Assembly: GCA_963716175.1 (NCBI GenBank)
Contig: OY970296.1
Coordinates: 2,272,001 to 2,336,000 of the forward strand
DNA from: an uncultured Armatimonadetes bacterium
Lineage (GTDB): Bacteria; Armatimonadota; Hebobacteria; Hebobacterales; Hebobacteraceae
Direction of reading: 5' to 3'
Length of the DNA: 64,000 nt
Made by a program: the position numbers and the translations under genes. Positions within the stretch are counted from its first letter, which is position 1. Each line of letters opens with the position of its first letter. The notes beneath the pieces were generated by a model. That model did not search any database. It saw only the letters and a list, made by a program, of their open reading frames with translations, and was not told the origin of the DNA. This document shows positions 74 to 39,136 of the stretch, piece by piece.

Positions 74-476
74 CCTGTGCGTGTTAGGCTGGCTTGGGAC
101 ACCGGATTCCAGGCGGATATTGGCCCTGTGGCTCTGAGCGACGAGGGTAGGGGAACCATACAGCCGCGCAAATGGGAGGGGGATCTTAGGGCCGGCATGG
201 CGCATGAGGGCACGGTGTCAAGGCCGGTGCAAACCCCCCCATTTCGCCGGTTGAAAACTCCCCAACCGCCACAGGCGGCGATCAAGCTCCCCCTGATCGC
301 AGTACACGCGATGGTGGCCTCCTGCGGCACTGGACTTGATCGCGGCACATAGGCAGCCGGTGCCAATCCGGGTGCCGGCGGGAACTGCCCACGCGTGTCC
401 ACTGCGAAGGACCGGCACGGAACTTGCGTTATCGGCCCACGAGTGCTCGGGCCCTGCCGCCCACCGCTGTTGACCG

Positions 477-730
477 CCGACGGCCCCGGCCACCCTCGAC
501 TCCGGCTACCCCCTCGGCTGGGGGTCGATGTCCGGGGTCCGTCGCTTACCGGAGACGCCAGCTGCGCCACGGTGGCGATCACGGGCAGCCCTGCCCAGTC
601 GGATTCCCTGGCGCTGCCCTTCCGCATCCTCGGCGCCTCCCAGCACAGGGATTCCAGCGAATGCCGAGAACACGACGATCGGGGCTGCAGGAGCATTCTG
701 GGAGCCGGATGAGTTTCTGGACAGCGCGGC
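477..730 (+). repeat. Dispersed intergenic element, copy 1 (hairpin 477-545 plus opposite-strand promoter/SD/short ORF)
   Basis: CGACGG..CCCCGG..GACTCCGGCTACCCCCTCGGCTGGGGGTC..CCGGGGTCCGTCG; downstream ~180 bp aligns with copies 2, 3 and 7. Confidence 0.85.
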
Positions 731-797
731 AGCCGACGTAGCATGGGAACCGCGCCGAGGACTCAGTCGCTTGGTCTGCGAGAAGAGGAGGTGACCA

Positions 798-3767
798 GTG
801 ATGCGGGTGCTGGGTGTGCCATGCAGTGCGTCGCGGTTTTCTGGGGCCGCGCTCTGCCTGTTGCTGGCTCTGGCGGCACGTGGCGGGCTCGCGGCGAAGG
901 CGGCCGGGAGCAGTCGAGGCGGGGGCAGCGCGGCGCGGGCGGTGGTCACGTATGTCGCGGGCGAGGTAGTTGCCGCCACCGGAAAGGCTGCCCGCCACAA
1001 GGTGGTGTTGGGCGAACAGCTCTCGATGGGGACGCGTCTGACACTGGCGAAGTCCTCGCGGCTGACAGCGCTGTGGAAGGATCGTCAGGTGACGACTGCT
1101 CTCAGGGGACCGAAGAGGGGGGTCGTGCTGACACCCCCGCCCCGCCCGAAGCGGACCGCGGACTCCGGCCCGTCCTCCCCGTCAGTGGTGAGGAGCGTTT
1201 GGAGCGCGGTGTGGACCCGCTTCGGCCGGGTGGGGCGGGGGCGGAACGGCCGGGCCGGGACGATGGAGGAACCCCTGGCTGTCCGCGGTTCTGGCGATAC
1301 CTGGCAGATGCGCCCGGCAGATGAGTACATACGATCGGGCAGCGTTGACCTGAGCTGGCATGACTCATCTGGGAGCACCGGTCAGCACCTGGTAATCATC
1401 TGGGATGCGAGCTTCGGGGAGCTCTGGAAGGCGACAGTCCGGGAGCACTCGGTCGCCGTGCCCACCTCGATCGGCTTTGCGCCTGGGCAGCGGTACCGGT
1501 GGGTAGTGTCCTCGGCGGCGAGCTCGGAAGCCTCCCCCATGCGGTGGTTCGAGATCCTGACGCCTCAGCGGGAGGCCTCTCTCCAGGACGAACTGCGTTG
1601 CGTCCAGGACCTGTTCCGGAAGGCAGACCCGCCATCTCAGATGCATGCCGCCATGGGGTGCATCTACGAGAGCTATGGGCTCGACTCGCAGGCGCGGGCC
1701 GAGTATCAGACGGCGGCGAAGACCAGCAAGGGATACCAGGCACTGGCTGACGCATTGGATCAGCAGAGGGCCCACAGCTCTGCCGTTGGTTCCCGTCCGC
1801 AGGTCCCCCGCGGGGCGAGTGATCCGAAGGCCACCAGTGACCACGTGAACTCGTCCCCCGGCCGACGACGAGTGCTGTTGACCAATCTCGGGCACGGCCT
1901 GATCGCCGGCTTGCTCATCGCTCTGCTGCATCTTTCAGGGCTGACCCTGACGCTGGACAAGCGCAACTACGATCTCTTGTTCCAGTTCTCACCAACCTCT
2001 GACAGGCCGGCCCAGCACGTCGTGATCGTGGGGGTTGATGACGCATCTCTGGGTGACCTGGGCCGCTGGCCCTGGCCCAGCAGTCGGCTGGCAATGGTGC
2101 TGCGCAAAGTGGAGCAAGCGCGGCCTGCGGCCGTTGGCCTCGACGTGTTGCTGGATCGGACTCGAGATGCGACGGACCCGGAACTGGGACGGGCGCTCCT
2201 GGAGCTGACCAACGTGGTCGCTGCCGCCAATCTCCGCTGGACGTCTGGCCTGCTGGCCGACATTGACCGGCCGGTGCCGGCCTTTCGCATCGGCACCGAG
2301 CGGATGGGGTTCTCGAACGCGGTCGAGGACCGAACCGACGGGTACATTCGCTCCTGGCGGCTGGCAGTGCAGGGCGACGGCTCGAAGCCCCTGCTGTCGC
2401 TGCCGGTCATGCTGGCTCTAGCGGCCTCGGGCAGGCCTGCCGACGACGTCCGCGTCGGCGGCGGTTCAGTGTGGCTTCCGCAGGTAGTGACGGCGTGGCG
2501 GAAGTGGCCTATGGTCACCATGATCGACTTCCGCCGTCCGGGTCAGATCCCCATACTCTCTGCGGCAGACGTACTCGAAGGCCGTGTGCCACCGGAGGCA
2601 CTGTCGGGCAAAGTGGTACTGGTGGGCGGCACGGCCACAGGGGTCTTCACCGACCTCTTTCGTACGCCGTTCTCGGACGACCTGGCAACCGGACGCTCGG
2701 CGCCGGCTCATGGTGTCGAGGTGATCGCGAACGCGGTTGAGACCCTCCTTTCTGATGTGCGCGTGCGAGAGCTGTCGCCGCTGGCGGCAGCTTCCATTCT
2801 GGCCGCCTTGGTCGTGATCGCGTGTGCCACGCTCCGACCTTTGCATCCCCTGTGGGGCGTGGGCGTTGTAGGGGTTATGGTGGTCGGTGTGGCGGTGGCA
2901 TCACTGGCGCTGTTCTCCTCCCATCGCCTCCAGGTCCCGGTCACTCCATTTGCGCTGGGGGTCACCGCAGCCTACCTGGTGGTGGCCCTGGAGAAGCGTG
3001 CGGCAGCAGATGCGCGCAGGCGCCTCGCCGAGCATAGGAACGTCCTCCTGCGCGACCTCTCAGCCATGGTGACACACGACCTGAAAGGGCCGTTGACAGC
3101 CATCATCGGGTTCCTCGAATTGCTGTCACGAGAGCAGCTCAGCGACAGCCAGCGGGAATTCGTGCAGATCGCCATGGGCAGCAGCAAGTGGCTCTCTGTG
3201 CTGATCGCAGGCATCCTCGACGTGGCGAAGATCGAGGCTGGGCAGATCAGTCTGAACCGCGAGTTCCTCGACATCGGGCGTGAACTGGAGCAGGCGCTGG
3301 CGGCCGTGAGCTATCAGCTCCAGGAGAAGGATCTGCGGATGGAGGTGACCGTCGAAGCTGACCTCCCCTGTGTGCCGGCCGACGCGGAGCTCTTCCGGCG
3401 AATCGTGGTGAACCTGGTGGGTAATGCTGCCAAGTTCGGCCCCGCGGGAAGCACGATCCAGCTTGGGGCCAGCCTTGATCGCAAGCGTGAGGCGCTCGTC
3501 GTAAGCGTGCAGGACCAGGGGCCAGGGATCGCGCGGGAGTATCAGGACCGGATCTTCGACAAGTTCGTGCAGGTGGCCAAAGCCAAGAGTGCAGAGACGA
3601 TCTCCGTCGGCCTCGGGCTGGCCTTCTGCCGTCTGGCTGTGGAGGCACATGGAGGTGGCATCTGGGTGGAGAGTGAACCTGGGCACGGCGCCCGGTTCTC
3701 GTTCTCATTGCCGCTGACTCTCCCTGACTCGCACAGGGCCCCGAAGCGCCGCTGGCGTCGGCTGTGA
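798..3767 (+). CDS. CHASE2-domain sensor histidine kinase with an N-terminal signal peptide and FecR/DUF928-like region
   Basis: CHASE2 motifs (VVIVGVDDASL, GRWPWP, VGLDVLL, GKVVLVG, HGVEVIANAVETLL), TM helices, HisKA (HDLKGPL), HATPase (NLVGNAAKF, DQGPGI, GLGLAFC); SD GAGGAGG upstream. Confidence 0.9.
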   Translation: MMRVLGVPCSASRFSGAALCLLLALAARGGLAAKAAGSSRGGGSAARAVVTYVAGEVVAATGKAARHKVVLGEQLSMGTRLTLAKSSRLTALWKDRQVTTALRGPKRGVVLTPPPRPKRTADSGPSSPSVVRSVWSAVWTRFGRVGRGRNGRAGTMEEPLAVRGSGDTWQMRPADEYIRSGSVDLSWHDSSGSTGQHLVIIWDASFGELWKATVREHSVAVPTSIGFAPGQRYRWVVSSAASSEASPMRWFEILTPQREASLQDELRCVQDLFRKADPPSQMHAAMGCIYESYGLDSQARAEYQTAAKTSKGYQALADALDQQRAHSSAVGSRPQVPRGASDPKATSDHVNSSPGRRRVLLTNLGHGLIAGLLIALLHLSGLTLTLDKRNYDLLFQFSPTSDRPAQHVVIVGVDDASLGDLGRWPWPSSRLAMVLRKVEQARPAAVGLDVLLDRTRDATDPELGRALLELTNVVAAANLRWTSGLLADIDRPVPAFRIGTERMGFSNAVEDRTDGYIRSWRLAVQGDGSKPLLSLPVMLALAASGRPADDVRVGGGSVWLPQVVTAWRKWPMVTMIDFRRPGQIPILSAADVLEGRVPPEALSGKVVLVGGTATGVFTDLFRTPFSDDLATGRSAPAHGVEVIANAVETLLSDVRVRELSPLAAASILAALVVIACATLRPLHPLWGVGVVGVMVVGVAVASLALFSSHRLQVPVTPFALGVTAAYLVVALEKRAAADARRRLAEHRNVLLRDLSAMVTHDLKGPLTAIIGFLELLSREQLSDSQREFVQIAMGSSKWLSVLIAGILDVAKIEAGQISLNREFLDIGRELEQALAAVSYQLQEKDLRMEVTVEADLPCVPADAELFRRIVVNLVGNAAKFGPAGSTIQLGASLDRKREALVVSVQDQGPGIAREYQDRIFDKFVQVAKAKSAETISVGLGLAFCRLAVEAHGGGIWVESEPGHGARFSFSLPLTLPDSHRAPKRRWRRL

Positions 3768-3900
3768 GAAGGTCACAGGAAAGAAGAGCATAGAGAAAGG
3801 CGTACTCGTAGCGGACCAAGGGCCCCTGTGCATCCGTGAGCACGCGCACAACGAGGTCGAAGCGCCTTCTTGGCGAAGCCGTGCTGCTGAGGGAACGAAC

Positions 3901-6900
3901 ATGGCGGGCGAGAGCAGGCCTTGGGGTCAGGCTTTTCGCAGGTCCTTCGCCCTGGCGTGCTGCGCGGCCGGTTTCTCCCTGCTGTTTCTTGGCGCACTCC
4001 CGATCTGTGCTGACACCGACAAGGCAAGCGCAGACGCGGCGTTGGCCAAGGGGTGGGCTCTTTACGAGCAGCAAGACTTCCTAGGCGCCCGTGGTCCGTT
4101 CGAGCAAGCCTTAGCGGCCTACCGCAAGCTGGGGCTGCAGAAGGAGGAGGGCCAGGCGCTCACCGGTTTAGGCGTGGTGGCGCGCACAGTGGCCCAGTAT
4201 GACAAGGCCCTGGGCTACTTCGACCAGGCGCTGACGACTTACCGCAAGCTGGGGCTGGAGCAGGAGGAGGCGTACACACTTCTCAACCTGGGCTACGTGG
4301 CCCGCCACCTCGCCCAGTATGACAAGGCCCTGGGCTACTATGAGAAGGCGCTGGCGACTTTTCGCAAGCTGGGCCTGGAAAAGGAAGCTGCCAGCACGCT
4401 GAAGATGTTGGGCTGGGTGGCCGCCGATCTCGCCCAGTACGATAAGGCTCTGGGCTACTTCGACCAAGCGCTGACGACTTACCGCAAGCTGGGGCTGGAG
4501 AAGGAAGCTGCCGGCACGCTGAACAACATGGGCTGGGTGGCCGCCGATCTCGCCCAGTACGACAAGGCTCTGGGCTACTTCGACCAAGCGCTGACGACTT
4601 ACCGCAAGCTGGGGCTGGAGAAGGAAGCTGCCGGCACGCTGAACAACTTGGGCTGGGCGGCGCGCGAACTGGCCCAGTATGACAAGGCCCTGGGCTACTG
4701 CGACCAAGCGCTGACGGTCTGCCGCAAGCCGGGGCTGGAGAAGGAAGCTGCCGGCACGCTGAACAACCTGGGCAGAGTGGCCCTCGAGCTAGCCCAATAC
4801 GACAAGGCCCTGGGCTACTTCGACCAAGCGCTGACGACTTACCGCAAGCTGGGGCTGGAGAAGGAGGAAGCGGAGACACTTCACTGCCTGAGCGCGGAGG
4901 CGCGCGAACTGGCCCAGTATGACAAGGCCCTGGGCTACTGCGACCAAGCGCTGACGATCTGGCGCAAGCTAGGGCTGGAGAAGCACGAGGCGTACACATT
5001 TGACGAGCTGGGCCTGGTCGCCGCCGACCTCGCCCAGTACGAGAAGGCCCTGGGCTACTACGAGCAGTCGCTGGCGATCTGGCGCAAGCTGCGGCTGGAG
5101 AAGGAGGCTGCCACCACGCTGAGCACCCTGGGCCTCGTAGCCGCCAATCTCGCCCAGTACAATAAGGCCCTGGGCTATTACGAGCAAGCGCTGGCGATCT
5201 ACCGCAAGCAGGGGGTCCCCCGCTATACCCGGTGGGCTCAGGCCAACATCGCCGACGTGCACCTGAGCCAGGGCAGGCTTGGGGAGGCGCGGGGCCTCCT
5301 GGAGCAAGCAGGGGACCCGCTGCGCTGGGGCCGCTACTACCTGCGCGCGGGGGACCCGGGAAAGGCAGCCAACGCATTCGAGCAAGGGGTTGATGTCGCG
5401 GAGCAGGCCCCCCCTGTCCGCGTCGCCTACCAGATCGGTCTTGGTCTGGCCCAGGAAGCGCTGGGGGAGTGGGAGAAGGCGGCGACGGCTTACGCCAAAG
5501 CCGTGGATCTGATCGAGAAGGCGCGAGCGAACACTCCGGCCGGGCAGCGAGGGAGCTTCTTCGAGGGGAAGGACTACGGGTTCCGTCGCCTGGAGCCCTA
5601 TGAAGGTCTTGCTCGCGTACTGCATCGGCTGGGACGAGACGACGAAGCCTTCTACTGGAGCGAGCACACCAAGGCGAGGGCCTTGGTGGAGGCGGTGGCG
5701 AGGGCGCCTTTTGGCGCGCCCCTGGGTTTGCCGGAGGGACTGCGCAGACAGGAAGACCAGCTCACCGACCAGGCCGCAGTGTTGAGCAAGCGGCTGGAGG
5801 AGAAGCCCGGGCAGCGGCAGGCGATTGAGGAGCAACTGAAGCCGGTGCGAGCGGAGCTGGAGGCTTTGCTTGCTCGCCTCCGCCTGGAGTACCCAGAGTA
5901 TGCTTCCCTGCGGTATCCTCAGCCGCTGCATGCGGGCGAGCTGGCCTTGGGGCCTGAGGAGGTGCTGCTGGCCTACCAGGTGACGGAGCCGGAGAGCTTC
6001 GCCTTTCTGGTGCGCCAGGGCAAGGTCGAGAAGGCCTTCGAGATCAAGCTGAGCCGTCAAGAACTTGAGAGCCTGATCCTGAGCTACCGGGCAGGCTTCG
6101 CGTCGGTGCGGCAGCAGGCCGATCTTCGGGCCCTTGATCTGCAGGCTGGTGCGCGGCTCTACCAGTTGTTGCTCGCGCCCGTGCTGGCGGAGGTGAAGCA
6201 GGGCGAGCAGGTGGTGGTGGTGCCGGATGGGGTGATTGGGCTGCTACCGCTGGAGGTGCTGATAGAGCACGCAGACAGGGTGCAGTGGCAGGAGGGGGAG
6301 CACGGGCCCTCCCCGGTGGGAGTGCACTTCGTCGGAGAGAGCAGGGTCTTCAGCTACTGGCAATCGGCGACGGCGATGACCACGGTACGGAGGCTGAGGA
6401 AGGAGGTGGGAGGAGATCGGGCGCTGGTGGTGGCGGACCCAGTGTTCGAGGCGAGCGACGCGCGGATGCCGGCCACGCAGGTGGCGAAAGTGGAACCAGC
6501 CGGCGCGGACTTGGGCCTGCGGGGGGAGATTGCGGAGAGCCTGCGGACGGCCTACGGAGCGGAGATCTTCCAGCGCATCGGGGGAGCCGAGCAACTCGTG
6601 GCAGGGCTGCGTCGCCTGTATGGCGAGAGGCTGACCGCGCTGGTGGGGCTAGATGCGCGCAAGGGGAGGCTCAAGCAGGAGCCCTTGGAGCGCTACGGCC
6701 AGATGATCTTCGCCACCCATGGCCTGCTGGGCGGGAACGTGCCCTGGCTGCGGCAGCCGGCCCTGGTGCTGAGCCAGGTGGGCAATGAGCCAGGGGAGGA
6801 CGGCTATCTCACCATGGCGGAGGTAATGGACCTGAAGCTGCGGGCCGAGGTGGTGGCCCTGATGGCCTGCGACACCGGCGCGGGGAGGAACGTGGGGGGC

Positions 6901-7185
6901 GAAGGCGTGATGGCGATGGGGCGGGCCTTCCAGTATGCCGGAGCGCGCAGCGTACTGGCGAGTCTCTGGAAGGCGGAGGATACAAGCACGAACTTGCTGA
7001 CGGAGGCGTTCCTCAAGGAGATGATGGCCGGGAAGGACAAGAGTGCCGCCCTGCAGGCGGCGCGCCAGCGCGTCCGCGAGGCCGGCTACGTTCATCCCTT
7101 CTACTGGGCGAACTTCGTCCTGATCGGGGAGCAGAGCGTGGCGAGCAGTCCGAGCGCACCGAAGGCGAGCGGAGCGGGAGGTTAG
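3901..7185 (+). CDS. Secreted TPR-repeat CHAT (caspase-like) domain protein
   Basis: Signal-peptide-like N-terminus; about nine 40-aa TPR-like repeats; CHAT motifs VPDGVIGLLPLEVL, FATHG (His), LMACDTG (Cys), ASLWKAED, HPFYWANF. Confidence 0.93.
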   Translation: MAGESRPWGQAFRRSFALACCAAGFSLLFLGALPICADTDKASADAALAKGWALYEQQDFLGARGPFEQALAAYRKLGLQKEEGQALTGLGVVARTVAQYDKALGYFDQALTTYRKLGLEQEEAYTLLNLGYVARHLAQYDKALGYYEKALATFRKLGLEKEAASTLKMLGWVAADLAQYDKALGYFDQALTTYRKLGLEKEAAGTLNNMGWVAADLAQYDKALGYFDQALTTYRKLGLEKEAAGTLNNLGWAARELAQYDKALGYCDQALTVCRKPGLEKEAAGTLNNLGRVALELAQYDKALGYFDQALTTYRKLGLEKEEAETLHCLSAEARELAQYDKALGYCDQALTIWRKLGLEKHEAYTFDELGLVAADLAQYEKALGYYEQSLAIWRKLRLEKEAATTLSTLGLVAANLAQYNKALGYYEQALAIYRKQGVPRYTRWAQANIADVHLSQGRLGEARGLLEQAGDPLRWGRYYLRAGDPGKAANAFEQGVDVAEQAPPVRVAYQIGLGLAQEALGEWEKAATAYAKAVDLIEKARANTPAGQRGSFFEGKDYGFRRLEPYEGLARVLHRLGRDDEAFYWSEHTKARALVEAVARAPFGAPLGLPEGLRRQEDQLTDQAAVLSKRLEEKPGQRQAIEEQLKPVRAELEALLARLRLEYPEYASLRYPQPLHAGELALGPEEVLLAYQVTEPESFAFLVRQGKVEKAFEIKLSRQELESLILSYRAGFASVRQQADLRALDLQAGARLYQLLLAPVLAEVKQGEQVVVVPDGVIGLLPLEVLIEHADRVQWQEGEHGPSPVGVHFVGESRVFSYWQSATAMTTVRRLRKEVGGDRALVVADPVFEASDARMPATQVAKVEPAGADLGLRGEIAESLRTAYGAEIFQRIGGAEQLVAGLRRLYGERLTALVGLDARKGRLKQEPLERYGQMIFATHGLLGGNVPWLRQPALVLSQVGNEPGEDGYLTMAEVMDLKLRAEVVALMACDTGAGRNVGGEGVMAMGRAFQYAGARSVLASLWKAEDTSTNLLTEAFLKEMMAGKDKSAALQAARQRVREAGYVHPFYWANFVLIGEQSVASSPSAPKASGAGG
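4120..5210 (+). repeat. Coding tandem repeat, 120-bp unit, about nine copies
   Basis: GCCCAGTAYGACAAGGCYCTGGGCTACT..CGCAAGCTGGGGCTGGAG recurs at exactly 120-bp period. Confidence 0.95.
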
Positions 7186-7231
7186 CTCAGCGGCGTGCGC
7201 CGGGCGAAGCACGCAGTTGAGGCCCTGTACT

Positions 7232-7603
7232 CCGATTTGAACCTGCGACCTCGCGATCGGGCCGGTTCGGTCGGATGGGGCGGACGGAGAAGAACGACGT
7301 AGGGGCGTCAAAGGGGGCAAGAGAGGGCAGATAGGTCTTGAGGGCAGGAACTGTCTTCGCATGGTCGCAGGTTCAAATCGAGGTCGCAATCAGTGGATTG
7401 CTTGCTCACCTTGACCCCGATATGAACCTGCGACCTAACGGCGTTCCTCTGGGATCTCCACCCTCGCCAGCCGCAACCCCGCCTCCTCCCACATGGCGTC
7501 TAGAGCCCTGCCAAGCCTCTCAAAGGGCAATTCCCAGATCCATCGCCTAGTGCGCATCTTCTCTAAGGCTGCCAATCCTGCCCCCGATTCGAACCTGCGA
7601 CCT
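7232..7603. repeat. Four ~20-bp repeats CCGATWYGAACCTGCGACCT (7232, 7363 inverted, 7417, 7584)
   Basis: Direct inspection; the reverse complement GGTCGCAGGTTCRAATC resembles a tRNA variable loop/T-arm. Confidence 0.85.
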
Positions 7604-7678
7604 GACCTGCGAGACACTCTCAGCAACGTCCACTTGCGCGCAAGAGGCGACGGCGTCTCTGGCGTCGCCTCCATATCC

Positions 7679-7754
7679 TGGTGCCGGGTCCCAGAGTCGA
7701 ACTGGGGACGCCGGGATTTTCAGTCCCGCGCTCTACCACCTGAGCTATCGCTCC
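7679..7754 (-). pseudogene. Chimeric tRNA-Phe(GAA) with unpaired acceptor stem (att-like copy)
   Basis: GGAGCGA-TAGCTCAGGTGGTAGAGCG-CGGGACTGAAAATCCCG-GCGTCCCCAGTTCGACTCTGGGACCCGGCACCA; 5' GGAGCGA cannot pair with 3' ACCCGGC. Confidence 0.8.
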
Positions 7755-7841
7755 ACTCGCGCTCAGGCCGCAGTCATCCCCCAGGAACACAGGTGTCCCG
7801 CTATCGAGCAGGGCCATCGGCCACCTCGGCGAAGCTCCTGG

Positions 7842-8097
7842 GCGACGGCCTCGGGCACCCCCGACTCCGGCTACCCCTCGGCTCGGGGTCACTGGCTGGG
7901 GGTCCGTCGCGTACGGCGGCGGGAGCCGCGCCACGGCGGCAATGACCGGCAGGCCCGCCCAGTCCAACCCTCGTTCGACGACCTTCTCCATCCTCGGTAC
8001 CTCTCAGCGCAAGGATATGCACAAGCGGAGAGAATACCACGAGAGAGGCGGCACGAGCATCCTGGAAGGCAGATGACTTTCTGGACAGCACGCGGCA
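7842..8097 (+). repeat. Dispersed intergenic element, copy 2 (hairpin 7842-7910)
   Basis: GCGACGG/CCGTCGC closing stem, GACTCCGGCTACCCCTCGGCTCGGGGTC core; minus-strand ATG at 7991 with AGAGGT SD. Confidence 0.85.
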
Positions 8098-8230
8098 GCA
8101 GCACAAGAAGATGATACTGGGCCATGGAAACACAGGGGCAGAGACACCTCAAGTGTGTCTCTGCTCACCCCCGATCTGTCCCAACTTCGCTGAGGCCGGA
8201 CATCAGGCGTCTTAGGGAGGAGACGAGCTC

Positions 8231-8851
8231 ATGGCAAGACACGCGGCGCTTGACTTCGACCGCAGACTCCTGCGCCTGTTCAAGGATCGAACTCACAGGC
8301 TAAGGGCACAGGTCCGAAAGCCCACGCGAGGCAAGGCCCCATCCTTCAACAAGACGAAGGTGGAACGTGTCATCAAGCAACTCCAAGAACTGGCGACTAA
8401 GTGCCAGCTACATGATCACGCGATCCGAGGCCTGAGGCAACTCTACGACCTCAAGAAGCAGTGGCATGTAACCAGTAAGACGGGTTGGGGCAATGAAAGA
8501 AAGCGAAAGGCATTCGTCGCGTGGTTTGAGAAGCACATTCCCTATGACAACTGCGTGTACGTGTTTTGGGAAAAGCGCAGATGCCGTTATGTCGGCCGAA
8601 CGCTAGGCGGACAGAATCGGCCTCAAAGCCAGTTTCAGAAGTTCTGGTTTCCTGGGGTCACCAGAGTTGACATCTATGCAAGTGGAGGGGCACGCGAGAT
8701 TCCGAAATTGGAGTGCCTGGCAACGCATCGTTTCCGGCCGACTCACTCGCGGATGAAACCCGCAACGCGAAAGTGGTACTCGAAGTGTCCGATCTGCGAG
8801 ACACGCAAGCTCGTCCGTGCCGAAGTGAAAGCAATCTTCAGGTTCCGATGA
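8231..8851 (+). CDS. GIY-YIG-superfamily nuclease-like basic protein with C-terminal CxxC
   Basis: CVYVFW-x6-YVGRT, downstream Arg and Glu (PKLECL); SD GGAGGAG. Confidence 0.7.
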   Translation: MARHAALDFDRRLLRLFKDRTHRLRAQVRKPTRGKAPSFNKTKVERVIKQLQELATKCQLHDHAIRGLRQLYDLKKQWHVTSKTGWGNERKRKAFVAWFEKHIPYDNCVYVFWEKRRCRYVGRTLGGQNRPQSQFQKFWFPGVTRVDIYASGGAREIPKLECLATHRFRPTHSRMKPATRKWYSKCPICETRKLVRAEVKAIFRFR

Positions 8852-9243
8852 AGTCGCCCGTAGAGGTCGCCCTGGATTGTCACCGCGCTGCATTCGCCCG
8901 TCGACGCATACGTGACCCGGCGTTGATTTCGGCCTCGTTCCAGGTGAGACCATTGCCCCGCGGCAGGTGAGCCGATCAACCGGTGGTATCGGTCGCGGGC
9001 GCGGGATCGGCCCGAGCAGCGGGACGTTTTGGGAACGCGTGCGGGTGCCAAATGGGCTTGGGACACCACCTGCGCCACCCAGACAGGCTCTGATCCTATG
9101 GGCGGGGGCGCGACCGCAGATGCGAACGGGACAGTGGGCACGGACGGGTTGCCGAGGCATCCGGCGAGGCCAAGGAGGGTTGCAGCAAGCGCGGCGGGAC
9201 GCGCCGGGCTGCGAAGTGACACCGGCCGCGGCTGGCAGAGGAA

Positions 9244-9518
9244 TCAGGCGGCGAGCCGGTAGGCGGTGATCCGGGTGTCGGCGAAGACGCGTCGCTCAAG
9301 GTTGGTCGGCAGAGCCTTGGTTGACTTCTCCGGCTTGGTCCACTGCTCGCCGCGATGAACCACCGATGGAAGCGCGCCGCCCAGCGTGGCATGGCCGCGG
9401 TACTCGTTGTAGTAGACGGCGAAGTCGTGCAGCAGTTGGCTCAGATGATCAAGGCCGCGGGTGATGGGGACGCGCTTCAGCCATTCGTACTTCAGCGTGA
9501 GGATGACGCGCTCGGTGA
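9244..9518 (-). pseudogene. C-terminal fragment of a DDE integrase-core (rve-type) transposase
   Basis: Reads TERVILTLKYEWLKRV...FAVYYNEYRGHATLGG...RLAA*, matching the ER..TLK.E / YN..R.H.L.G signature. Confidence 0.75.
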
Positions 9519-9671
9519 GAACAGCATCAGCATCACCTGCCAGAACATGGCCGGGAGGATGCCCCAGTGATGGCGAGAAGTCAACCTCAGTCGTGCCCGG
9601 GAACCAAGACTCCTGGCTTCCTGGATGCCTCAGATTGGTCTTGGTACACTACGACCTGCCGGTTTGTCTGA

Positions 9672-11048
9672 CTAGCGTTCCGCTCGCGTAATGAGCTTCC
9701 AGAAGAAGAACGCGGGCTCGTCGCGTATGGCGGCCTGGTGGTCGCGCAGGTCGTAGATCCCCTGTAGGGCTGCGACGAGAGCTGCCGCCAGGGTCAAGCC
9801 CCCGGTCGGATATGCGGCAACAAGCGATGTCGCGATCACACCGGCGTTCAGAAAGACACGGCTCTTGAGTTGCTTGTTCGCACGCGAGACTCTGTCAACC
9901 GCGTCTCCCAAGATGTCCCGCTGCACTGTCTTGATACGCTGCTCGAGTGTTGCCGTTCCCCCATCTGACGCGATCTCTGCGAACGCCCTGTCGAGAGCTT
10001 CTCGGAACCGCTCGAACGCATCTTCGTCTCGACGCACCTTAGCCAGATCCGCTATTGAGACCTTGTCCAAAACCGGGAGGTCTATTCGTAACAGTGCTGA
10101 GGAAACCGGTTCCATCGGCATCTCTGCTGACAGACCGATCTCCAACATGTCTCGCGACACGGGCGAGCCCGTAAGGAGACGAGCTCCGCTCGCGCAAGCC
10201 GCACGAACATCTTGGACGACCCCTTCGAATCTGTCTCGGAGCACCGCAGCGGCGGACTGGTTCACCCACGTCTCGAACTCTTCCTCGGTCACTGGCTGCG
10301 GATCACGGAGATTCAGGGAAGTGTGGAGTATCCGGTGCTCTTCATCCTCGTCGCGGATGGGCAAGATCTCGTGAAGGAAGAACAGCCGTCGCGGCTCGGT
10401 CGGATCGCCGCGAAAGCCGCAAGCGATCATGCGACCGGGGGTCAGAGGTCCATCCGTCACGACAAAGTCACTGTCCACGTAGCGCACTGGTTGAACGAGC
10501 AGACTCTCAACGCCGTACGCTATTAGGGATGGCGGCGGGGCAGATGGTGACTGCTCAAACAACGGCACTGACCCGGGTTTCGGAACGAACCAGCTGAGGG
10601 TCCTGGCCCGTTGTCGTCCCAGCGGGACCACGATCCCACTTTCGACCAGAGGCCTTATCTCAAGGAGTCGGCCCAGCGCACCCCGTATGGCCTGTTGCTC
10701 CCGCTCTAGTCTCGCCTCCTGTCCTTTCGTCACGGCGAACAGGTCAGCTCCTGGCCTCAGCCAGCGCACGGCAAGGCCGTAGAGCGGATCATCAAGGAAT
10801 ATCCGGTGGGCGTACAGGCAGAGTCGCCGTACGGCGCTCAACGGCAACCCCGGATCAGCAGAATCGGGATAGACCCGGAACACGCGTCGGTCGGTCTCTT
10901 CTCCGACAGCCTCCCTGTGTTCACATATCCGAGCGTACTCCTCATAGAACCGGGACAGTTCCTTGTCTGTCACCCGGCTAATCTGCGACTCGTCTATCTG
11001 CCCTCGTCGAGCAAGCCCGTAGCGCTCAATGATGTCGTAGACGCTCAT
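9672..11048 (-). CDS. Hypothetical protein, DUF6236-like architecture, C-terminal hydrophobic hairpin
   Basis: 458-aa ORF; LCLYAHRIFLDDPL, LPVLDKVSIADLAKVRRD..FERFREAL, then hydrophobic tail. Confidence 0.75.
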   Translation of the reverse strand: MSVYDIIERYGLARRGQIDESQISRVTDKELSRFYEEYARICEHREAVGEETDRRVFRVYPDSADPGLPLSAVRRLCLYAHRIFLDDPLYGLAVRWLRPGADLFAVTKGQEARLEREQQAIRGALGRLLEIRPLVESGIVVPLGRQRARTLSWFVPKPGSVPLFEQSPSAPPPSLIAYGVESLLVQPVRYVDSDFVVTDGPLTPGRMIACGFRGDPTEPRRLFFLHEILPIRDEDEEHRILHTSLNLRDPQPVTEEEFETWVNQSAAAVLRDRFEGVVQDVRAACASGARLLTGSPVSRDMLEIGLSAEMPMEPVSSALLRIDLPVLDKVSIADLAKVRRDEDAFERFREALDRAFAEIASDGGTATLEQRIKTVQRDILGDAVDRVSRANKQLKSRVFLNAGVIATSLVAAYPTGGLTLAAALVAALQGIYDLRDHQAAIRDEPAFFFWKLITRAER

Positions 11049-11171
11049 TCTAGTCCCGTAGTGTACCGGAACTGATCTGAGGGTTTCTTCGGCAGGTGCA
11101 GAGCGGGACCTGCCCTCTCGCGTGGTTGGTTGATGGGGTTTGAGATGGCTCGCGCGTCCCCGAAGCTAAGC

Positions 11172-11420
11172 TGACGGCCCCGGGCACCCCCCCAACTCCG
11201 GCTACCCCCTCGGCTGAGAGTCACGGCCTGGGGTTCCGTCACGTAGGGGACAGCAGTCAGGCTACCGTGGCAATCACCGGCAGTCCTCAGAGTCCAGTCC
11301 TCTATTGCTGTCCAGCTGCATCCTTTATGCCTCCGAGACGAAGGGGTGTCGGCGAGCGCACGGAATACCATGAGACCGGCTATGCAGAGGCTTCGAGAGC
11401 CGGGTGAGTTCTCGGATCGG
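11172..11420 (+). repeat. Dispersed intergenic element, copy 3 (hairpin 11172-11241)
   Basis: TGACGG/CCGTCA compensatory closing stem; AACTCCGGCTACCCCCTCGGCTGAGAGTC; minus-strand GGAGG plus ATG at 11321, ORF frameshifted. Confidence 0.85.
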
Positions 11421-11425
11421 AGGGC

Positions 11426-12445
11426 ATGACGGTGGAACGGGACGAGGGAGCCCCCGAGATCGCGTTCTACTATCCCGGCCACCTCTGGCGGTCCGGTGAC
11501 TGGATAAAGAACCTGCTCCTGTTCTTCGATGGCGTCGGGCTACTGGTTCCTTCCCACAAGAGGCTTGAGCCCGAGATACTCGATCCAGTCGTTGTGAAGC
11601 CCCTGCTGGATGAACAGCTGCTTCATATTCTCGAGCCTGAGGCATTAGTGGACCAGGAGGCAACTCAGCACCTTGTGGGCACGATGACGGACCTCATCGC
11701 GGCCGGGACCCTAGACCCTTTGGCCGCGGAGGGCGGCGCGTTTGACACTATCTCAAGGTCTCGCTTCGGGTACCATGGCGATCCTGGCCTGGCGGACATG
11801 ATGTTCGAGGAACTGAAAGCTCGTGCCCTCGCGCGCGACAGCGAAGATGGCGTCTCGATACCGATCCATCCGTCGATCCGCTACCTGATCCTTGCCTTGC
11901 TCGCACAGATTCTCCGACCGAAGGGACGCCAACTCGGCCTAGACTTGTCCCCGGTCACCGACCGCCCAGAACTCATCCAGGCGCTTTCCGAGTTCCTGAC
12001 GATAGCGGTCCCACCATCGGCCGGACAGGTGATAGCTCTTGACCTCCAGACGGTTGGCGTGGACCTCAGTGCTGTGCCAATCGACGAAGTCCTCAGCTTC
12101 CGCAGTTCAAACCTCGATTCCCACAGGGCTTACATCCGCGCCGTGCGCCGGTTCGTCCGTGAGCTGAGTGTGATGCCGGAAGAGAGTCGCCGCTTAGCGA
12201 TGTTGGATCGCGGGCGGGAACTCGATGATATGGCAAGCGATCTCACGCGCAATGCCCGGAAGGCCTGGCGTCGCGCAGCGGCGTTCGCGCTGAGCATCGC
12301 GGGGGCTACGTGGAAGATGGCCAGCGGTGACCCATTGGGGGCCCTTCTGGGGGCAGGGGCCGCCCTCGCTGGTGGCGTGGGGGGCACAGGTGCAGAGACT
12401 GGCGCGTATAGCTACCTGTTCGCCGCCCACGAGCGGTACGCCTGA
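11426..12445 (+). CDS. Hypothetical protein, DUF6236-like
   Basis: AFYYPG..WIKNLLLFFDGVGLLVP N-terminus; VPIDEVLSFR; Gly/Ala-rich hydrophobic C-terminus. Confidence 0.8.
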   Translation: MTVERDEGAPEIAFYYPGHLWRSGDWIKNLLLFFDGVGLLVPSHKRLEPEILDPVVVKPLLDEQLLHILEPEALVDQEATQHLVGTMTDLIAAGTLDPLAAEGGAFDTISRSRFGYHGDPGLADMMFEELKARALARDSEDGVSIPIHPSIRYLILALLAQILRPKGRQLGLDLSPVTDRPELIQALSEFLTIAVPPSAGQVIALDLQTVGVDLSAVPIDEVLSFRSSNLDSHRAYIRAVRRFVRELSVMPEESRRLAMLDRGRELDDMASDLTRNARKAWRRAAAFALSIAGATWKMASGDPLGALLGAGAALAGGVGGTGAETGAYSYLFAAHERYA

Positions 12446-13182
12446 GATGCCAACAGATCGCCCGCGTAACAGTGGCTACTGCGGTCCATGCACGGCGAGC
12501 CACGATTTCCGTCTTGAGCGCCGACGTATGTGCCGGCCAACTGGCGTGGAACTGGTGTCATCGGGCCACAAGTGGCCTCTTGACGAACGCGCAGCAAATC
12601 CGTGACGAGCCTTCGCCGGGATGCACACTCGCCCCCGTCGACAGGGACAGCGGGGCGAGGCCACAGAGGGCACGTCTCGGTCAACACGCATAGCTTTGCT
12701 GCCGAAGCGCTGCCGCAGGCCGTTTCGATCCCAGGTCCTTTTGGTAGTGGTGGAGGAAACTATACTCAGCCGCTCATGGCTCTCTGAGCCACCCGGAGAG
12801 GATGAAGAGGGCGGGCGACGGTGGTAGTTGGGTGGCGGACGAGCGGGATGAGATCGTTTCGGTCGTGGGTGCGATCAGCCCGCTATTCAGTCTGATCCGG
12901 GCGCAGCGTTTTCGAGCCCAGGAGTGCTGCCCGCACCTGGTGCGGAGTGGACTGCACCCCTGGGCCTGGACAGAATGGGGCGCGATGTAGCACCCTCTGA
13001 TGAGGCGGGAAAGAGAGGGCCTCATCATGGCAGTGACACGAAGGCCGCGTACCCGGGGCACCCAGCCCTGCACCCGCCCCTCTCTTGTCACCCCCGGTTG
13101 CTCACCGAGTCCAGACACTCCCGGAGCCCATGTGCCAGGGACGGCAGCGGCGACGGCCTCTCCGCCGCCGCCTTCCATACCC

Positions 13183-13258
13183 TGGTGCCGGGTCCCAGAG
13201 TCGAACTGGGGACACCCGGATTTTCAGTCCAGCGCTCTACCACCTGAGCTAACCCGGC
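13183..13258 (-). tRNA. tRNA-Phe (GAA)
   Basis: GCCGGGT/ACCCGGC acceptor stem, CTGAAAA anticodon loop, GTTCGAC T-loop, encoded CCA. Confidence 0.95.
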
Positions 13259-13393
13259 ACGCGAATCTCAGTCCTCAGTTGGGTAGGTTCGAACTGCCCC
13301 TCGGGAGCCAAGACGGTTCTTCACCCACCTCCGCTCCCCATCTTGTCCCAGGACGCGTGGGATTGCCCGTAGAGAGGCACTTTGTGTGACACC

Positions 13394-22198: not shown

Positions 22199-22267
22199 CG
22201 ACGGCCCCCTGCAACCCTCGACTCCGGCTTCCCCTTCGGCATGCAGGCACTATGCGGGGTTCCGTCG
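22199..22267 (+). repeat. Dispersed intergenic element, copy 4 (hairpin)
   Basis: CGACGG-CCCCCTGCA-ACCCTCGACTCCGGCTTCCCCTTCGGC..TGCGGGG-TT-CCGTCG. Confidence 0.8.
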
Positions 22268-23262: not shown

Positions 23263-23336
23263 CGCGACGGCCCGAGCAACCCTCCGACTCCGGCTGCCCT
23301 CCTCGGCTTGGCATCAGTGTTCGGGGTTCCGTCGCG
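23263..23336 (+). repeat. Dispersed intergenic element, copy 5 (hairpin)
   Basis: CGCGACGG-CCCGAGCA-ACCCTCCGACTCCGGCTGCCCTCCTCGGCT..TGTTCGGGG-TT-CCGTCGCG. Confidence 0.8.
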
Positions 23337-25971: not shown

Positions 25972-26040
25972 TGATCGCCCTCGGCCCTCCTCGACTCCGG
26001 CTACCCCCTGGGCGTGGAGTCGGGGCCTGGGGTTCGGTCG
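25972..26040 (+). repeat. Dispersed intergenic element, copy 6 (hairpin)
   Basis: TGATCG/CGGTCG covaried closing stem; CTCGACTCCGGCTACCCCCTGGGCGTGGAGTC core. Confidence 0.8.
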
Positions 26041-31255: not shown

Positions 31256-32568
31256 CTACCGGTCCGGCCTTTTCTCCCCGCGCGAAGTGCCGGCGCCGGC
31301 CTGGCCCGATTCCACCAGCTCACCCGTCGCGTCCCGGATTTTCGCAACCGCCTCGGCGAAGAGGTCCATGTCCTGCTGGCTGCCGAGGAGCACGGTCTGG
31401 GGGAGGGAGAGGAACTTGCCGGCATAGCCTTCGGCCACCGGGCAGCGCGTCCGCGTGTAGTCGAGTTCCTTCCCGTAGACCCTCAAGATGCCTGGGTCGA
31501 AACGTTTCTCCACGAACATCGGATGCTGGTGAAGCGCCCGCACTGCCGTGACCGCGCTGCAAGGAATGCCCTCCGCGGACAGGGCCTCGGCGAAGCGCGC
31601 CGCCGGCAGCCCTCCCAAGGCTTCCGCGTCGTAGTGCAGCGTCGGGTAGAGGTGGCTGAGCCGCGTCATGCGCGGGTCCCTAGTGGGGAAGCGCACTGCG
31701 GCGGTGACCCCGGCGAGCGCGGAGGCGAGATGGGCGGCATTCGCCTCTTTGACGCTGATCAGGTCGTCAAGCCTGCCAAATTGCGCTAGCACGATCGCTC
31801 CCGCGAACTCGGACATACGGAAGTTCCAGCCCATCTCCTCGAACCTGCCTATCTCATCCTGTCCGACCCGCTGCCCGAGCTTGCGACATTCGCGGCGAGC
31901 ACCTCGTCATTCGTCACGATCATCCCGCCTTCACCCGCGGTGAGCGACTTGTCCTGCTGAAAGCTGAACGCGCTCAGGTGTGCCGCGGCCGCCACCTTCC
32001 TGCCGCGCCATTCGCTACCATGGGCGTGGCAGGCGTCGCCGATCACCATCAGGTGGTGGCGCTGGGCGATCGCCATGATCGCGTCCATGTCGCAGGGGAT
32101 GCCCCCGCAGTGCACCGGCACGATCGCCTTTGTCCGTTCCGTGATCGCGGCCTCGATCGCAGCTGGGTCCAGGTTCAACCACTCGGCCTCGATATCCACG
32201 AACACCGGGATCGCGCCCAGAGCAAGCGCCGCGCTGGCAGTGGTGACGAAAGATCGAGGCGGCATGATCACCTCATCGCCGTGGCCGACGCCCGCCGCCG
32301 CATAGCTGATCAGCAGCGCCGCCGAGCCGCTATCCACCGCGATGCCGTACGCGCAGTCGTGGTAGGCCGCGTACGCCTGCTCCAACTGCGCCACCTTGGA
32401 CTCGCTGAAGTCCCTTCCCTTGCCCTCGAAGATGTAGGGCAAGGCGCACCAGCACCTGCTCTCGAGGACCTCCCGCACCCCCTGGAGTTCCCGCTCATCG
32501 TAGATCGGCCATACCGGCCAGCTTCCCGTCCTGACCGGCTCTCCACCTCGGATTGCGAGCTTCGCCAT
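31256..32568 (-). CDS. DegT/DnrJ/EryC1/StrS aminotransferase, frameshifted near 31889
   Basis: DSGSAAL, PVFVDI, DACHAHG, FSFQQDKSLTAGEGG, then GWNFRMSE in another frame; adding one A restores continuity. Confidence 0.85.
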
Positions 32569-32592
32569 CACCGCCCTCCCTATCGCCATTGT

Positions 32593-32796
32593 CGGGTTCC
32601 ATCCCAGGCTAGCATCCCCTTTCGTGCTCCTCTCGGAGGCAACGATATGGCCGGGCTGCGCAGTGGTTCAGCCGCACCCGTGCCCTGCTGCATCATCCAT
32701 GCCTCCCAGAACAGGGGTATGCGTGAGGGGAGAGAATAGCACGAGATGGGCGGCAGGGGCGGTCTGGGTGCCAGATGAGTCTCTCGACGGCACGCG
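32593..32796 (+). repeat. Dispersed intergenic element, copy 7 (hairpin mostly lost)
   Basis: GCCTCCCAGAACAGGG..GAGAATAGCACGAG..CCAGATGAGTCTCTCGACGGCACGCG aligns with copies 1-3; only GGGTTCCATC of the hairpin remains. Confidence 0.7.
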
Positions 32797-37372: not shown

Positions 37373-37403
37373 CGGACCTGCCCCCCTATCCGCCGAATCT
37401 GAC

Positions 37404-37533
37404 TAGAAGCTGTTTCATAACCTTCCCAGGGAAGGTTATGAAACAGCACCGCACAACGTCAGGCAGTGGCCGGCGCATTTCATGCGAGGGCGTGGTGCGG
37501 CCAGCCAGCAGGTAGGTTATGAAATGCGCTCTA
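37404..37533 (+). mobile_element. 130-bp MITE, copy 1
   Basis: Imperfect TIRs TAGAAGCTGTTTCATAACC / GGTTATGAAATGCGCTCTA, TA at both ends, near-identical to the other two copies. Confidence 0.88.
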
Positions 37534-38679: not shown

Positions 38680-39009
38680 ATGGTTGATATCGCACTGCCT
38701 CTTGCTATCCTGGATAGCCTGGCGGACCCGATACTGGTGGCCGACACAGAGCACATGACCCGATACATGAACGCGGCCGCGGCCAAACACTACCCCGGTG
38801 GCGAAAGCCTGATCGGCCAATCGCTTCTCGATTGCCACACACCCAAGTCCCAGCAGATCATCCGGGAGGTGCTGGCGGCGATGCAGGCAGGTGAGAACGA
38901 GCGCCTGATCAGCGACCGAGACGGGCGCCGCCACTACATGATCGCGGTGCGCAGCCGGGAGGGCCGCCTTCTTGGCTACTACGAGCGCCTCGTGCCGGCC
39001 GGAGACTAG
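38680..39009 (+). CDS. Stand-alone PAS-domain protein
   Basis: ILDSLADPILVAD..YMNAAA..LIGQSLLDCH..GRLLGYYE. Confidence 0.85.
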   Translation: MVDIALPLAILDSLADPILVADTEHMTRYMNAAAAKHYPGGESLIGQSLLDCHTPKSQQIIREVLAAMQAGENERLISDRDGRRHYMIAVRSREGRLLGYYERLVPAGD

Positions 39010-39136
39010 AAGCTGTTTCATAACCTTCCCAGGGGAGGTTATGAAACAGCACTGCACAACGTCAGGCAGTGGCAGGCGCATTTCATGCGAGGGCGTGGTG
39101 CGGCCAGCCAGCAGGTAGGTTATGAAATGCGCTCTA
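39007..39136 (+). mobile_element. 130-bp MITE, copy 2
   Basis: Same sequence; sits in a CTAG shared by two convergent stop codons. Confidence 0.88.

Follow-up and report, generated by a model that had tools for sequence, protein, structure and literature searches.

Does a small peptide gene recur in this genome, or does something else account for the gene-like unit that is repeated along it? The 64,000-nt stretch analysed here and called the window (positions 2,272,001 to 2,336,000 of contig OY970296.1, from an uncultured Armatimonadetes bacterium of the family Hebobacteraceae) holds several copies of a unit in which a promoter-like box, a Shine-Dalgarno sequence (SD) and an ATG lead into a short hydrophobic frame that adjoins a GC-rich hairpin. 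An earlier note on this DNA had read the unit as a type I toxin-antitoxin-like or leader-peptide gene, with a fallback in which it is what remains of the 5' end of a longer gene from a mobile element. It is the fallback that held: the unit is ordinary, non-coding mobile-DNA debris, and no peptide gene is maintained. What looked like a short gene is very probably the leftover left end of an insertion sequence joined to the hairpin, the two forming a non-autonomous repeat of ~260 bp akin to miniature inverted-repeat transposable elements (MITEs), which would resemble a gene because its features were inherited from a transposase gene.

The genome (4.56 Mb, 66% GC) carries the unit as three modules, read here on the minus strand. 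Module A (~127 nt from repeat end to ATG) comprises a terminal inverted repeat TGTCCAGAAACTCATC, the promoter-like box, the SD and the ATG; module B encodes the hydrophobic stretch DWAGLPVIATVARLL; and module C is the 65-nt hairpin. Three A-B-C composites lie in the window, all on the minus strand. Copy 1 (476..735) takes its limits from matches of other copies and genomes, which start at window positions ~476-478 and stop at ~729-740. It has the inverted repeat at 723-708, a -10-like TGTTCT at 672-667, the SD at 640-636, the ATG at 627-625, B at 600-552 and the hairpin at 543-479, followed by a shortened tail, GGCGGTCAACAG. Copy 2 (7840..8095) has the inverted repeat at 8087-8072, the box TGGTATTCT at 8039-8031, the SD at 8004-8000, the ATG at 7991-7989, B at 7964-7909 and the hairpin at 7908-7844. 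Copy 3 (11170..11425) is decayed: its inverted repeat is degenerate, TGGTATTCC lies at 11370-11362, the SD at 11334-11330 and the ATG at 11321-11319, and B (11287-11244) carries a 1-nt deletion and stops before the hairpin at 11240-11173. In the window copies the inverted repeat marks the precise start of module A, and its terminal 16-mer occurs four times in the window where 0.43 occurrences are expected, far above chance.

Direct reading agrees with the earlier note on what the unit looks like. (i) A (G/A)GAGG-type SD precedes the ATGs at 627, 7991, 11321 and 32693, the last in a solitary module A; the SDs of copies 1, 2, 3 and solo A are GGAGG, AGAGG, GGAGG and GGGAGG, and the spacing is exactly 8 nt in each. 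(ii) The extended box TGnTATTCY is present in copies 2 and 3 and in solo A, the note's copy 7 (TGCTATTCT), and is degenerate in copy 1. (iii) The encoded peptides are MRKGSARESDWAGLPVIATVAQL and MEKVVERGLDWAGLPVIAAVARL, as written there, and copy 3 has the reported frameshift. (iv) Copies 1 and 2 have no stop at the hairpin, and their frames stay open through it, for 270 and 123 aa in all, as composition-typical junk sequence.

The origin of these features is found outside the window. At genome 2861802-2863215, A and B run without interruption into a 373-aa open reading frame (ORF) within an intact 1414-bp insertion sequence, bounded by terminal repeats TGTCCAGAAACTCATC and inverted TGTCCAATAACTCATC (14 of 16 positions identical). 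Each repeat starts with TGT, and immediately internal to the left one are the promoter and SD. A tblastn search of the genome returned this as the one full-length copy among 20 high-scoring segment pairs, plus a few larger fragments. The 373-aa protein matches Pfam rve_3 with 33.1 bits (cut-off 26.5); against NCBIfam it scores 86.4 bits for IS481 (cut-off 224) and 49.3 bits for IS3, both below the curated cut-offs. Since its IS481 score lies under the curated threshold, we call the parent transposase an IS481-like DDE enzyme, a distant relative of the IS481 and IS3 families rather than a curated member. A single transposase ORF, an rve-type DDE core and flanking terminal inverted repeats are all present in the parent.

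Relatives of the protein are abundant: 3,896 of 8,000 candidates scored fell at E<=0.001, and the best 120 of these are mostly ~370 aa long and 59-100% identical, several of them named 'putative transposase' at source. We aligned the two window peptides with twelve full-length proteins, the genome's own (P0001) and eleven relatives (alignment A1, 14 rows). The window peptides sit on the full-length N-termini, where W11, L14, P15, I17 and A18 are invariant; the copy 2 peptide MEKVVERGLDWAGLPVIAAVARL differs from the corresponding segment of P0020, MEKAVERGLDWAGLPVIATVARL, at 2 of 23 residues. Read from the same alignment, the parent transposase has a helix-turn-helix-like N-terminal part and a D...D(35)E pattern (CADLF, HDRD, HAERW). 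The earlier note had itself named the N-terminus of a known transposase as an outcome that would undo the peptide reading, and that is what the residues prove to be: a conserved segment of a 373-aa rve_3 protein and its relatives, not a free-standing peptide.

The unit is a recurrent structure with a fixed junction. Profiles built from 26 full-length copies and searched with nhmmer gave 54 matches to module A, 31 to B and 99 to C in the genome; B is attached to 26 hairpins, and 73 hairpins stand without it. Copies form same-strand runs, including those at 0.72-0.80, 1.03-1.08, 1.61-1.62, 1.71-1.73, 1.91-2.11, 2.26-2.30 (the window) and 2.79 Mb. In ~26 copies the transposase gene stops after about codon 27, ...ARLL(C), at one constant point against the hairpin, and in all composite copies the junction reads ...CTGCTGTGCC followed by (CA)YAYRCGC-GACGG, with a 10-nt indel variant. 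Four B matches, the intact element among them, bypass the hairpin and continue ...LLCRELTLQNEYLLLENRTLKSKVPGRLRFTDEERR; other truncations, at residues ~27-67 and without a hairpin, are also present.

Identical architecture and junction were seen directly in other genera of the family (genomes G005, G009 and G011), and a further member (G014) has a match spanning A to C. Some match was found in 13 of the 14 family members searched and in 2 of 26 more distant genomes; the loci that hold the unit in the several genera are unrelated. Scanning for exact matches to the hairpin core gave two records, each titled as an Armatimonadota metagenome-assembled genome. Full-length elements in two relatives have a right end without a hairpin, so the fusion is not a by-product of the element's normal structure.

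The ends of the unit are discrete. Between closely related pairs, similarity is lost exactly at the inverted repeat and at the hairpin or tail end. About ten units have a tail, ...GGCCGGCTTCACGGGCGGTTGACA(N)GGACA, giving them TGTCC...GGACA termini and a constant length of 260-267 bp; no copy without the tail has both ends, and the window copies have no proper one. A second, small repeat has the tail as its inverted repeat, and the tail shares only the terminal TGTCC with the parent insertion sequence. The right end of the unit is either the hairpin or the end of that second repeat, ...TTGACA(N)GGACA, and not the parent's. A semi-conserved module of ~60 nt (CAGGATGCTTCGGCGGGGTGGGC...) also follows the hairpin in at least ten copies (e.g. 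window 7780-7840 and genome 1917400-1917466); its transposase-sense strand bears a tetraloop motif of the cUUCGg type, and it resembles a diverged version of the tail.

The copies show no maintained reading frame. Frames taken from the canonical start span 2-270 aa in the 18 composite copies with a placeable start, and no stop is conserved. Placement used an over-strict SD-ATG pattern that left 17 of the 54 A matches, the intact element among them, unplaced (unscored rather than negative), and six further A matches are truncated before the SD; of the 31 starts that could be placed, 24 are ATG and seven are not (ATA three times, AAG, ACG, ATT and TTG). The ATG is also missing from two of the three aligned copies from other genera (G005 and G011). 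Among the 31 B matches, five have in-frame stops, four have 1-2-nt deletions and three have 4-5-nt insertions, leaving 12 of 31 broken.

The earlier note had further taken the differences in B to be mostly synonymous. Codon counts over 23 truncated copies of the 31 B matches (four that continue into a transposase gene and four with large indels were excluded) placed 43, 47 and 77 differences from consensus at codon positions 1, 2 and 3. The third-position excess is present but modest, and 'mostly synonymous' is too strong for the larger sample, in which 60 codon changes are synonymous, 82 non-synonymous and four create stops, with ~31% synonymous expected from random single changes. The invariance of the transposase N-terminus in full-length proteins would by itself account for this coding-like pattern.

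The preferred account is then as follows. The left repeat, the promoter, the 5' untranslated region with its ribosome-binding site and the first ~27 codons would originally have served to express the transposase. The unit would have arisen once, when the transposase body was lost beside a hairpin, and the ~260-bp remainder would have multiplied afterwards, either in trans through its TGTCC...GGACA ends or passively with duplication and exchange of the hairpins. These two routes seem about equally probable, and we would give true transposition in trans an even chance. The promoter may still fire towards the hairpin and yield a short transcript. Homology to the transposase, the common junction, frame decay, the distribution over many copies and several genera and the discrete ends are all matters of observation, whichever route was taken.

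Several results weigh against this account. In the window copies, no inverted repeat like the parent's was found at the right end; inspection of the flanks revealed no target-site duplications, which could have eroded given that the copies are only 70-80% alike; and a search of 15 relatives yielded no orthologous empty site, only matches to the repeat itself. With no parent-type right end, no target duplications and no empty site, mobility as a unit is unproven. The genome also has only a single intact copy of the parent. As to sequence evolution, parsimony events in the truncated copies, counted on a tree built from non-B columns, number 38, 43 and 64 by codon position (chi-square p=0.02), and B evolves more slowly than its neighbours, with 3.0 events per column compared with 6.3 in A and 4.2 in C. 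Such residual constraint in B is not what one old fusion and subsequent neutral decay would predict, and it is the chief difficulty for the account. The explanation we prefer is gene conversion from intact elements, which would produce it; identity between units is mosaic, one pair being ~75% alike in A and ~95% alike in B-C. Finally, the columns best conserved over the 54 A matches include those of the -10 box, SD and ATG, which could still function.

The alternative that survives best accepts the same relic and denies its mobility: the unit would have been spread by segmental duplication and by homologous recombination or gene conversion between hairpins, with no transposition. We consider this possible, though the less probable course. 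In many pairs of hairpins one flank is shared (93-100% identity) while the other is not, and in 12 pairs examined the switch points fall variously in the 5' arm, loop, 3' arm and tail; hairpin-bounded segments of ~0.8-1.2 kb recur at 92-97% identity beside different neighbours; the scatter and the recurring segments together argue for homologous exchange rather than site-specific crossover. That no target-site duplications or parent-type right ends were seen fits passive spread too. Such spread does not readily explain why close units lose their similarity precisely at the inverted repeat and at the tail or hairpin end, why ~10 units retain TGTCC...TTGACA(N)GGACA termini and a length fixed at 260-267 bp, or why the unit lies at unrelated loci in several genera.

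The recurring segments, as in genome 2258934-2259858 (13 kb to the left of the window) compared with 2026239-2027030 and 1949153-1950074, lie in different runs and amount to cassette-like shuffling at the hairpins. An integron array was considered for such runs and rejected: the scattered switch points leave no single crossover point and, in the one array checked, the tyrosine recombinase adjoining the 1713-kb run reaches 40 bits where the integron-integrase cut-off is 265, and housekeeping glycogen genes lie between the units.

The hairpin itself is a strong structure with no evident strand polarity. The hairpins of the three window composites fold with -35 to -43 kcal/mol on either strand, and no strand preference appeared among 51 full copies (-31.9 vs -32.7 kcal/mol, p=0.35). 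Compensating variants in the outer stem, read by eye and unscored, include CCCCGAGC/GCTCGGGG and CCCCGGCC/GGCCGGGG; RNAalifold on a MAFFT alignment gave no useful hairpin consensus. By crude ORF calls, the hairpin is extragenic in 95 of 99 matches. It is not a terminator by the usual signs, lying a median of ~300 nt from the facing stop codon and having no T-run. At gathering thresholds, Rfam found only rRNA and tRNAs in the whole window, and at E<=5 it found only a tRNA fragment in 7700-8200.

Two further elements are associated with the hairpin; the copies cited here lie outside the window. The first is a canonical IS481-family element of 1294 bp (transposase 261 bits, cut-off 224) inserted in the hairpin loop at GTAG. 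All four complete copies (genome 1725520-1726813, 1904478-1905771, 1934792-1936085 and 1973970-1975263) abut the same loop position in the same orientation, and the one copy read at both ends, 1725520-1726813, is flanked by a 4-bp duplication. At three more sites a related end, TTGTGCGGACCGGATACAGA, adjoins the hairpin one helix-strand earlier. The second is the small inverted-repeat element that shares its end with the tail of the unit: 173-219 bp, with a hairpin between ~27-nt terminal repeats (TGTCCCTGTCAGACGCCCGTGAAGCCGGCC ... hairpin ... inverse), for example at genome 1927002-1927220, 1951760-1951932 and 2067560-2067736. No autonomous partner of this repeat was found in the genome: no pairs at 0.8-4 kb bracket a transposase, and the ORFs adjoining 10 solitary ends are ordinary genes.

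These associations invite a broader reading, which we hold to be unlikely, in which the hairpins would be a system like that of repetitive extragenic palindromic (REP) elements, serviced by DDE (IS481-type) transposases instead of REP-associated tyrosine transposases (RAYTs), and the promoter would have been kept so that a transcript could act on the hairpin or its neighbours. Under it, hairpins would travel in small TGTCC-ended elements (the A-B-C chimera and the 175-220-bp inverted-repeat element), would be the obligatory landing site of the canonical IS481 element and would act as recombination joints that reshuffle kilobase segments, with the retained promoter facing the hairpin and mostly antisense to neighbouring genes. 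An ordinary RAYT-linked REP system was rejected, as the five genes matching Y1_Tnp (at 0.96, 1.20, 3.13, 3.63 and 4.05 Mb) are all more than 70 kb from the nearest hairpins. These five IS200/RAYT-type genes are solitary and diverged, and encode 177-198 aa. No match to a Y2 transposase was obtained, a weakly informative result given that control genomes gave none either.

A narrower possibility, for which the odds likewise look poor, is that the unit has been exapted as a promoter-hairpin module: the former transposase promoter would drive a short non-coding antisense or regulatory transcript, passing across B and reaching either the hairpin or a neighbouring gene's 3' end. The conservation of the -10 box, SD and ATG region and the halved rate of B relative to A are what this would predict, and orientation agrees in part, A being antisense to both neighbouring ORFs in 26 of 54 cases and co-directional with both in four, and C in 44 and 11 of 99; these counts inherit the weakness of crude ORF calls (a filter on third-position GC; 3,210 ORFs, 81% of the genome). 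A solitary module A also lies 92 nt upstream of a co-directional gene. Set against this, the unit has no match in Rfam even at E<=5, the hairpin is not followed by a T-run, the repeat end, the start or the hairpin has gone from many copies, and the box goes unflagged in a scan of 300-12000 for the sigma-70 consensus, which returned one promoter-like site where 1.1 are expected. Moreover, the copies adjoin unrelated genes (histidine kinase, glycoside hydrolases, glycogen genes and hypotheticals), which, together with the mostly antisense placement and the missing T-run, also speaks against an attenuator and against the leader-peptide reading of the earlier note.

A real small-protein gene made of the first ~26 residues (a type I toxin, a leader peptide or a trans-acting inhibitor of transposition) is close to refuted and would be very surprising: the ideal SD spacing, an ATG in 24 of 31 placeable copies, the hydrophobic DWAGLPVIATVARLL stretch and the modest third-position excess speak for it, against the variable frames with no conserved stop, the breaks in 12 of 31 B matches, the start lost in two of three aligned relatives and the invariance of the same residues in full-length transposases.

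Besides the composites, the window holds solitary modules on the minus strand. Solo module A (32681..32794), without B or hairpin, has an inverted-repeat-like CGTCGAGAGACTCATC at 32789-32774, the box TGCTATTCT at 32741-32733, the SD at 32707-32702 and the ATG at 32693-32691. The co-directional ORF 92 nt downstream (32589..31849) is of the DegT/DnrJ aminotransferase type, and the promoter at 32681-32794 may read into it. This DegT/DnrJ/EryC1-type aminotransferase is split into two ORFs on the minus strand (window 31256-32589), of which 32589..31849 covers profile positions 24-195 and 31834..31256 covers 216-350; possible reasons for the split are a frameshift, decay to a pseudogene or an error of assembly. 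Solo hairpins lie at 22204..22266, 23266..23333 and 25975..26039, the last with an upstream flank in common with the copy at genome 1033509.

We also note some peculiarities of the window. (i) A 90-nt stretch at 7670-7759 is 90% alike to 13174-13263, the latter spanning a tRNA-Phe gene (13183-13258, minus strand) and the former a degenerate copy (7690-7747) in which the 5' acceptor strand is replaced. The two stretches bracket a 5.4-kb segment with unit copies 2 and 3 and ORFs that match nothing in Pfam; the arrangement has the appearance of an old integration at tRNA-Phe. Below copy 2, the flank shares 96% identity with a locus at genome 789.4 kb that adjoins the genome's other tRNA-Phe. (ii) Eight tandem 120-nt repeats (4101-5240), 67-79% alike, lie inside a 1094-aa ORF with TPR and CHAT domains (3901..7185). 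(iii) Two 133-nt direct repeats, 98% identical, lie 1.6 kb apart at 37401-37533 and 39004-39136.

The unit carries a caution for annotation. Where a genome is rich in repeats and high in GC, an insertion sequence's left end, with its promoter, SD, ATG and coding-like substitutions, looks like a small gene; joined to a hairpin, it passes for a type I toxin-antitoxin locus. Once the unit is recognised, dozens of false small-ORF and small-RNA candidates fall away in this genome and its relatives, and the hairpin-rich runs stand out as zones where insertion and recombination take place.

Type I toxin-antitoxin loci such as Fst/RNAII and TxpA/RatA have a short hydrophobic frame, a good SD and a hairpin that can be read from the other strand. 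The unit likewise has a short hydrophobic N-terminal frame with a good SD and an adjoining stable hairpin; it differs in having no conserved ORF end, a frame broken in many copies and dozens of copies per genome, and in that its residues belong to a 373-aa transposase. Likeness to the IS481/IS3 group lies with the parent, through its single ORF, rve-type DDE core and TGT-starting terminal repeats, although its 86 bits fall far below the IS481 cut-off of 224, which the second element of the same genome passes with 261.

MITEs are non-autonomous derivatives of insertion sequences (background in PMC3852290 and PMC3184786). Like them, the unit is short (~260 bp), multi-copy and intergenic, lacks coding capacity, bears the parent's left repeat and includes a stable hairpin. 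Unlike them, its right end is not the parent's (it is the hairpin or the end of the second, ~175-220-bp repeat), no target duplications were found for it, and it retains a promoter, an SD and 27 codons, hence its resemblance to the start of a gene. A literature search for IS481 with miniature inverted-repeat transposable elements returned nothing that by title concerns the present element, and none was found joining Armatimonadetes with repetitive extragenic palindromic sequences.

REP palindromes and the bacterial interspersed mosaic elements (BIMEs) are targets of insertion sequences, in some cases for '100% of copies' (PMC1525189); the passages of that paper on the subject name the IS3, IS110, IS4, IS256 and IS5 families, and IS481 is not among the families named there. 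Measured against those passages, the present hairpin is similar in being GC-rich, extragenic, present in ~100 copies and the fixed-point target of a specific insertion sequence (4 of 4 complete copies). It differs in being 65 nt rather than ~35 nt long, in forming same-strand runs rather than alternating pairs, in having none of the genome's five Y1 (RAYT-type) genes nearby and in being targeted by an element of the IS481 family. The hairpin family and its dedicated IS481-type element provide an example, hitherto undescribed, of transposition targeted to a structure in a phylum that has received little study; known biology is modestly extended by it.

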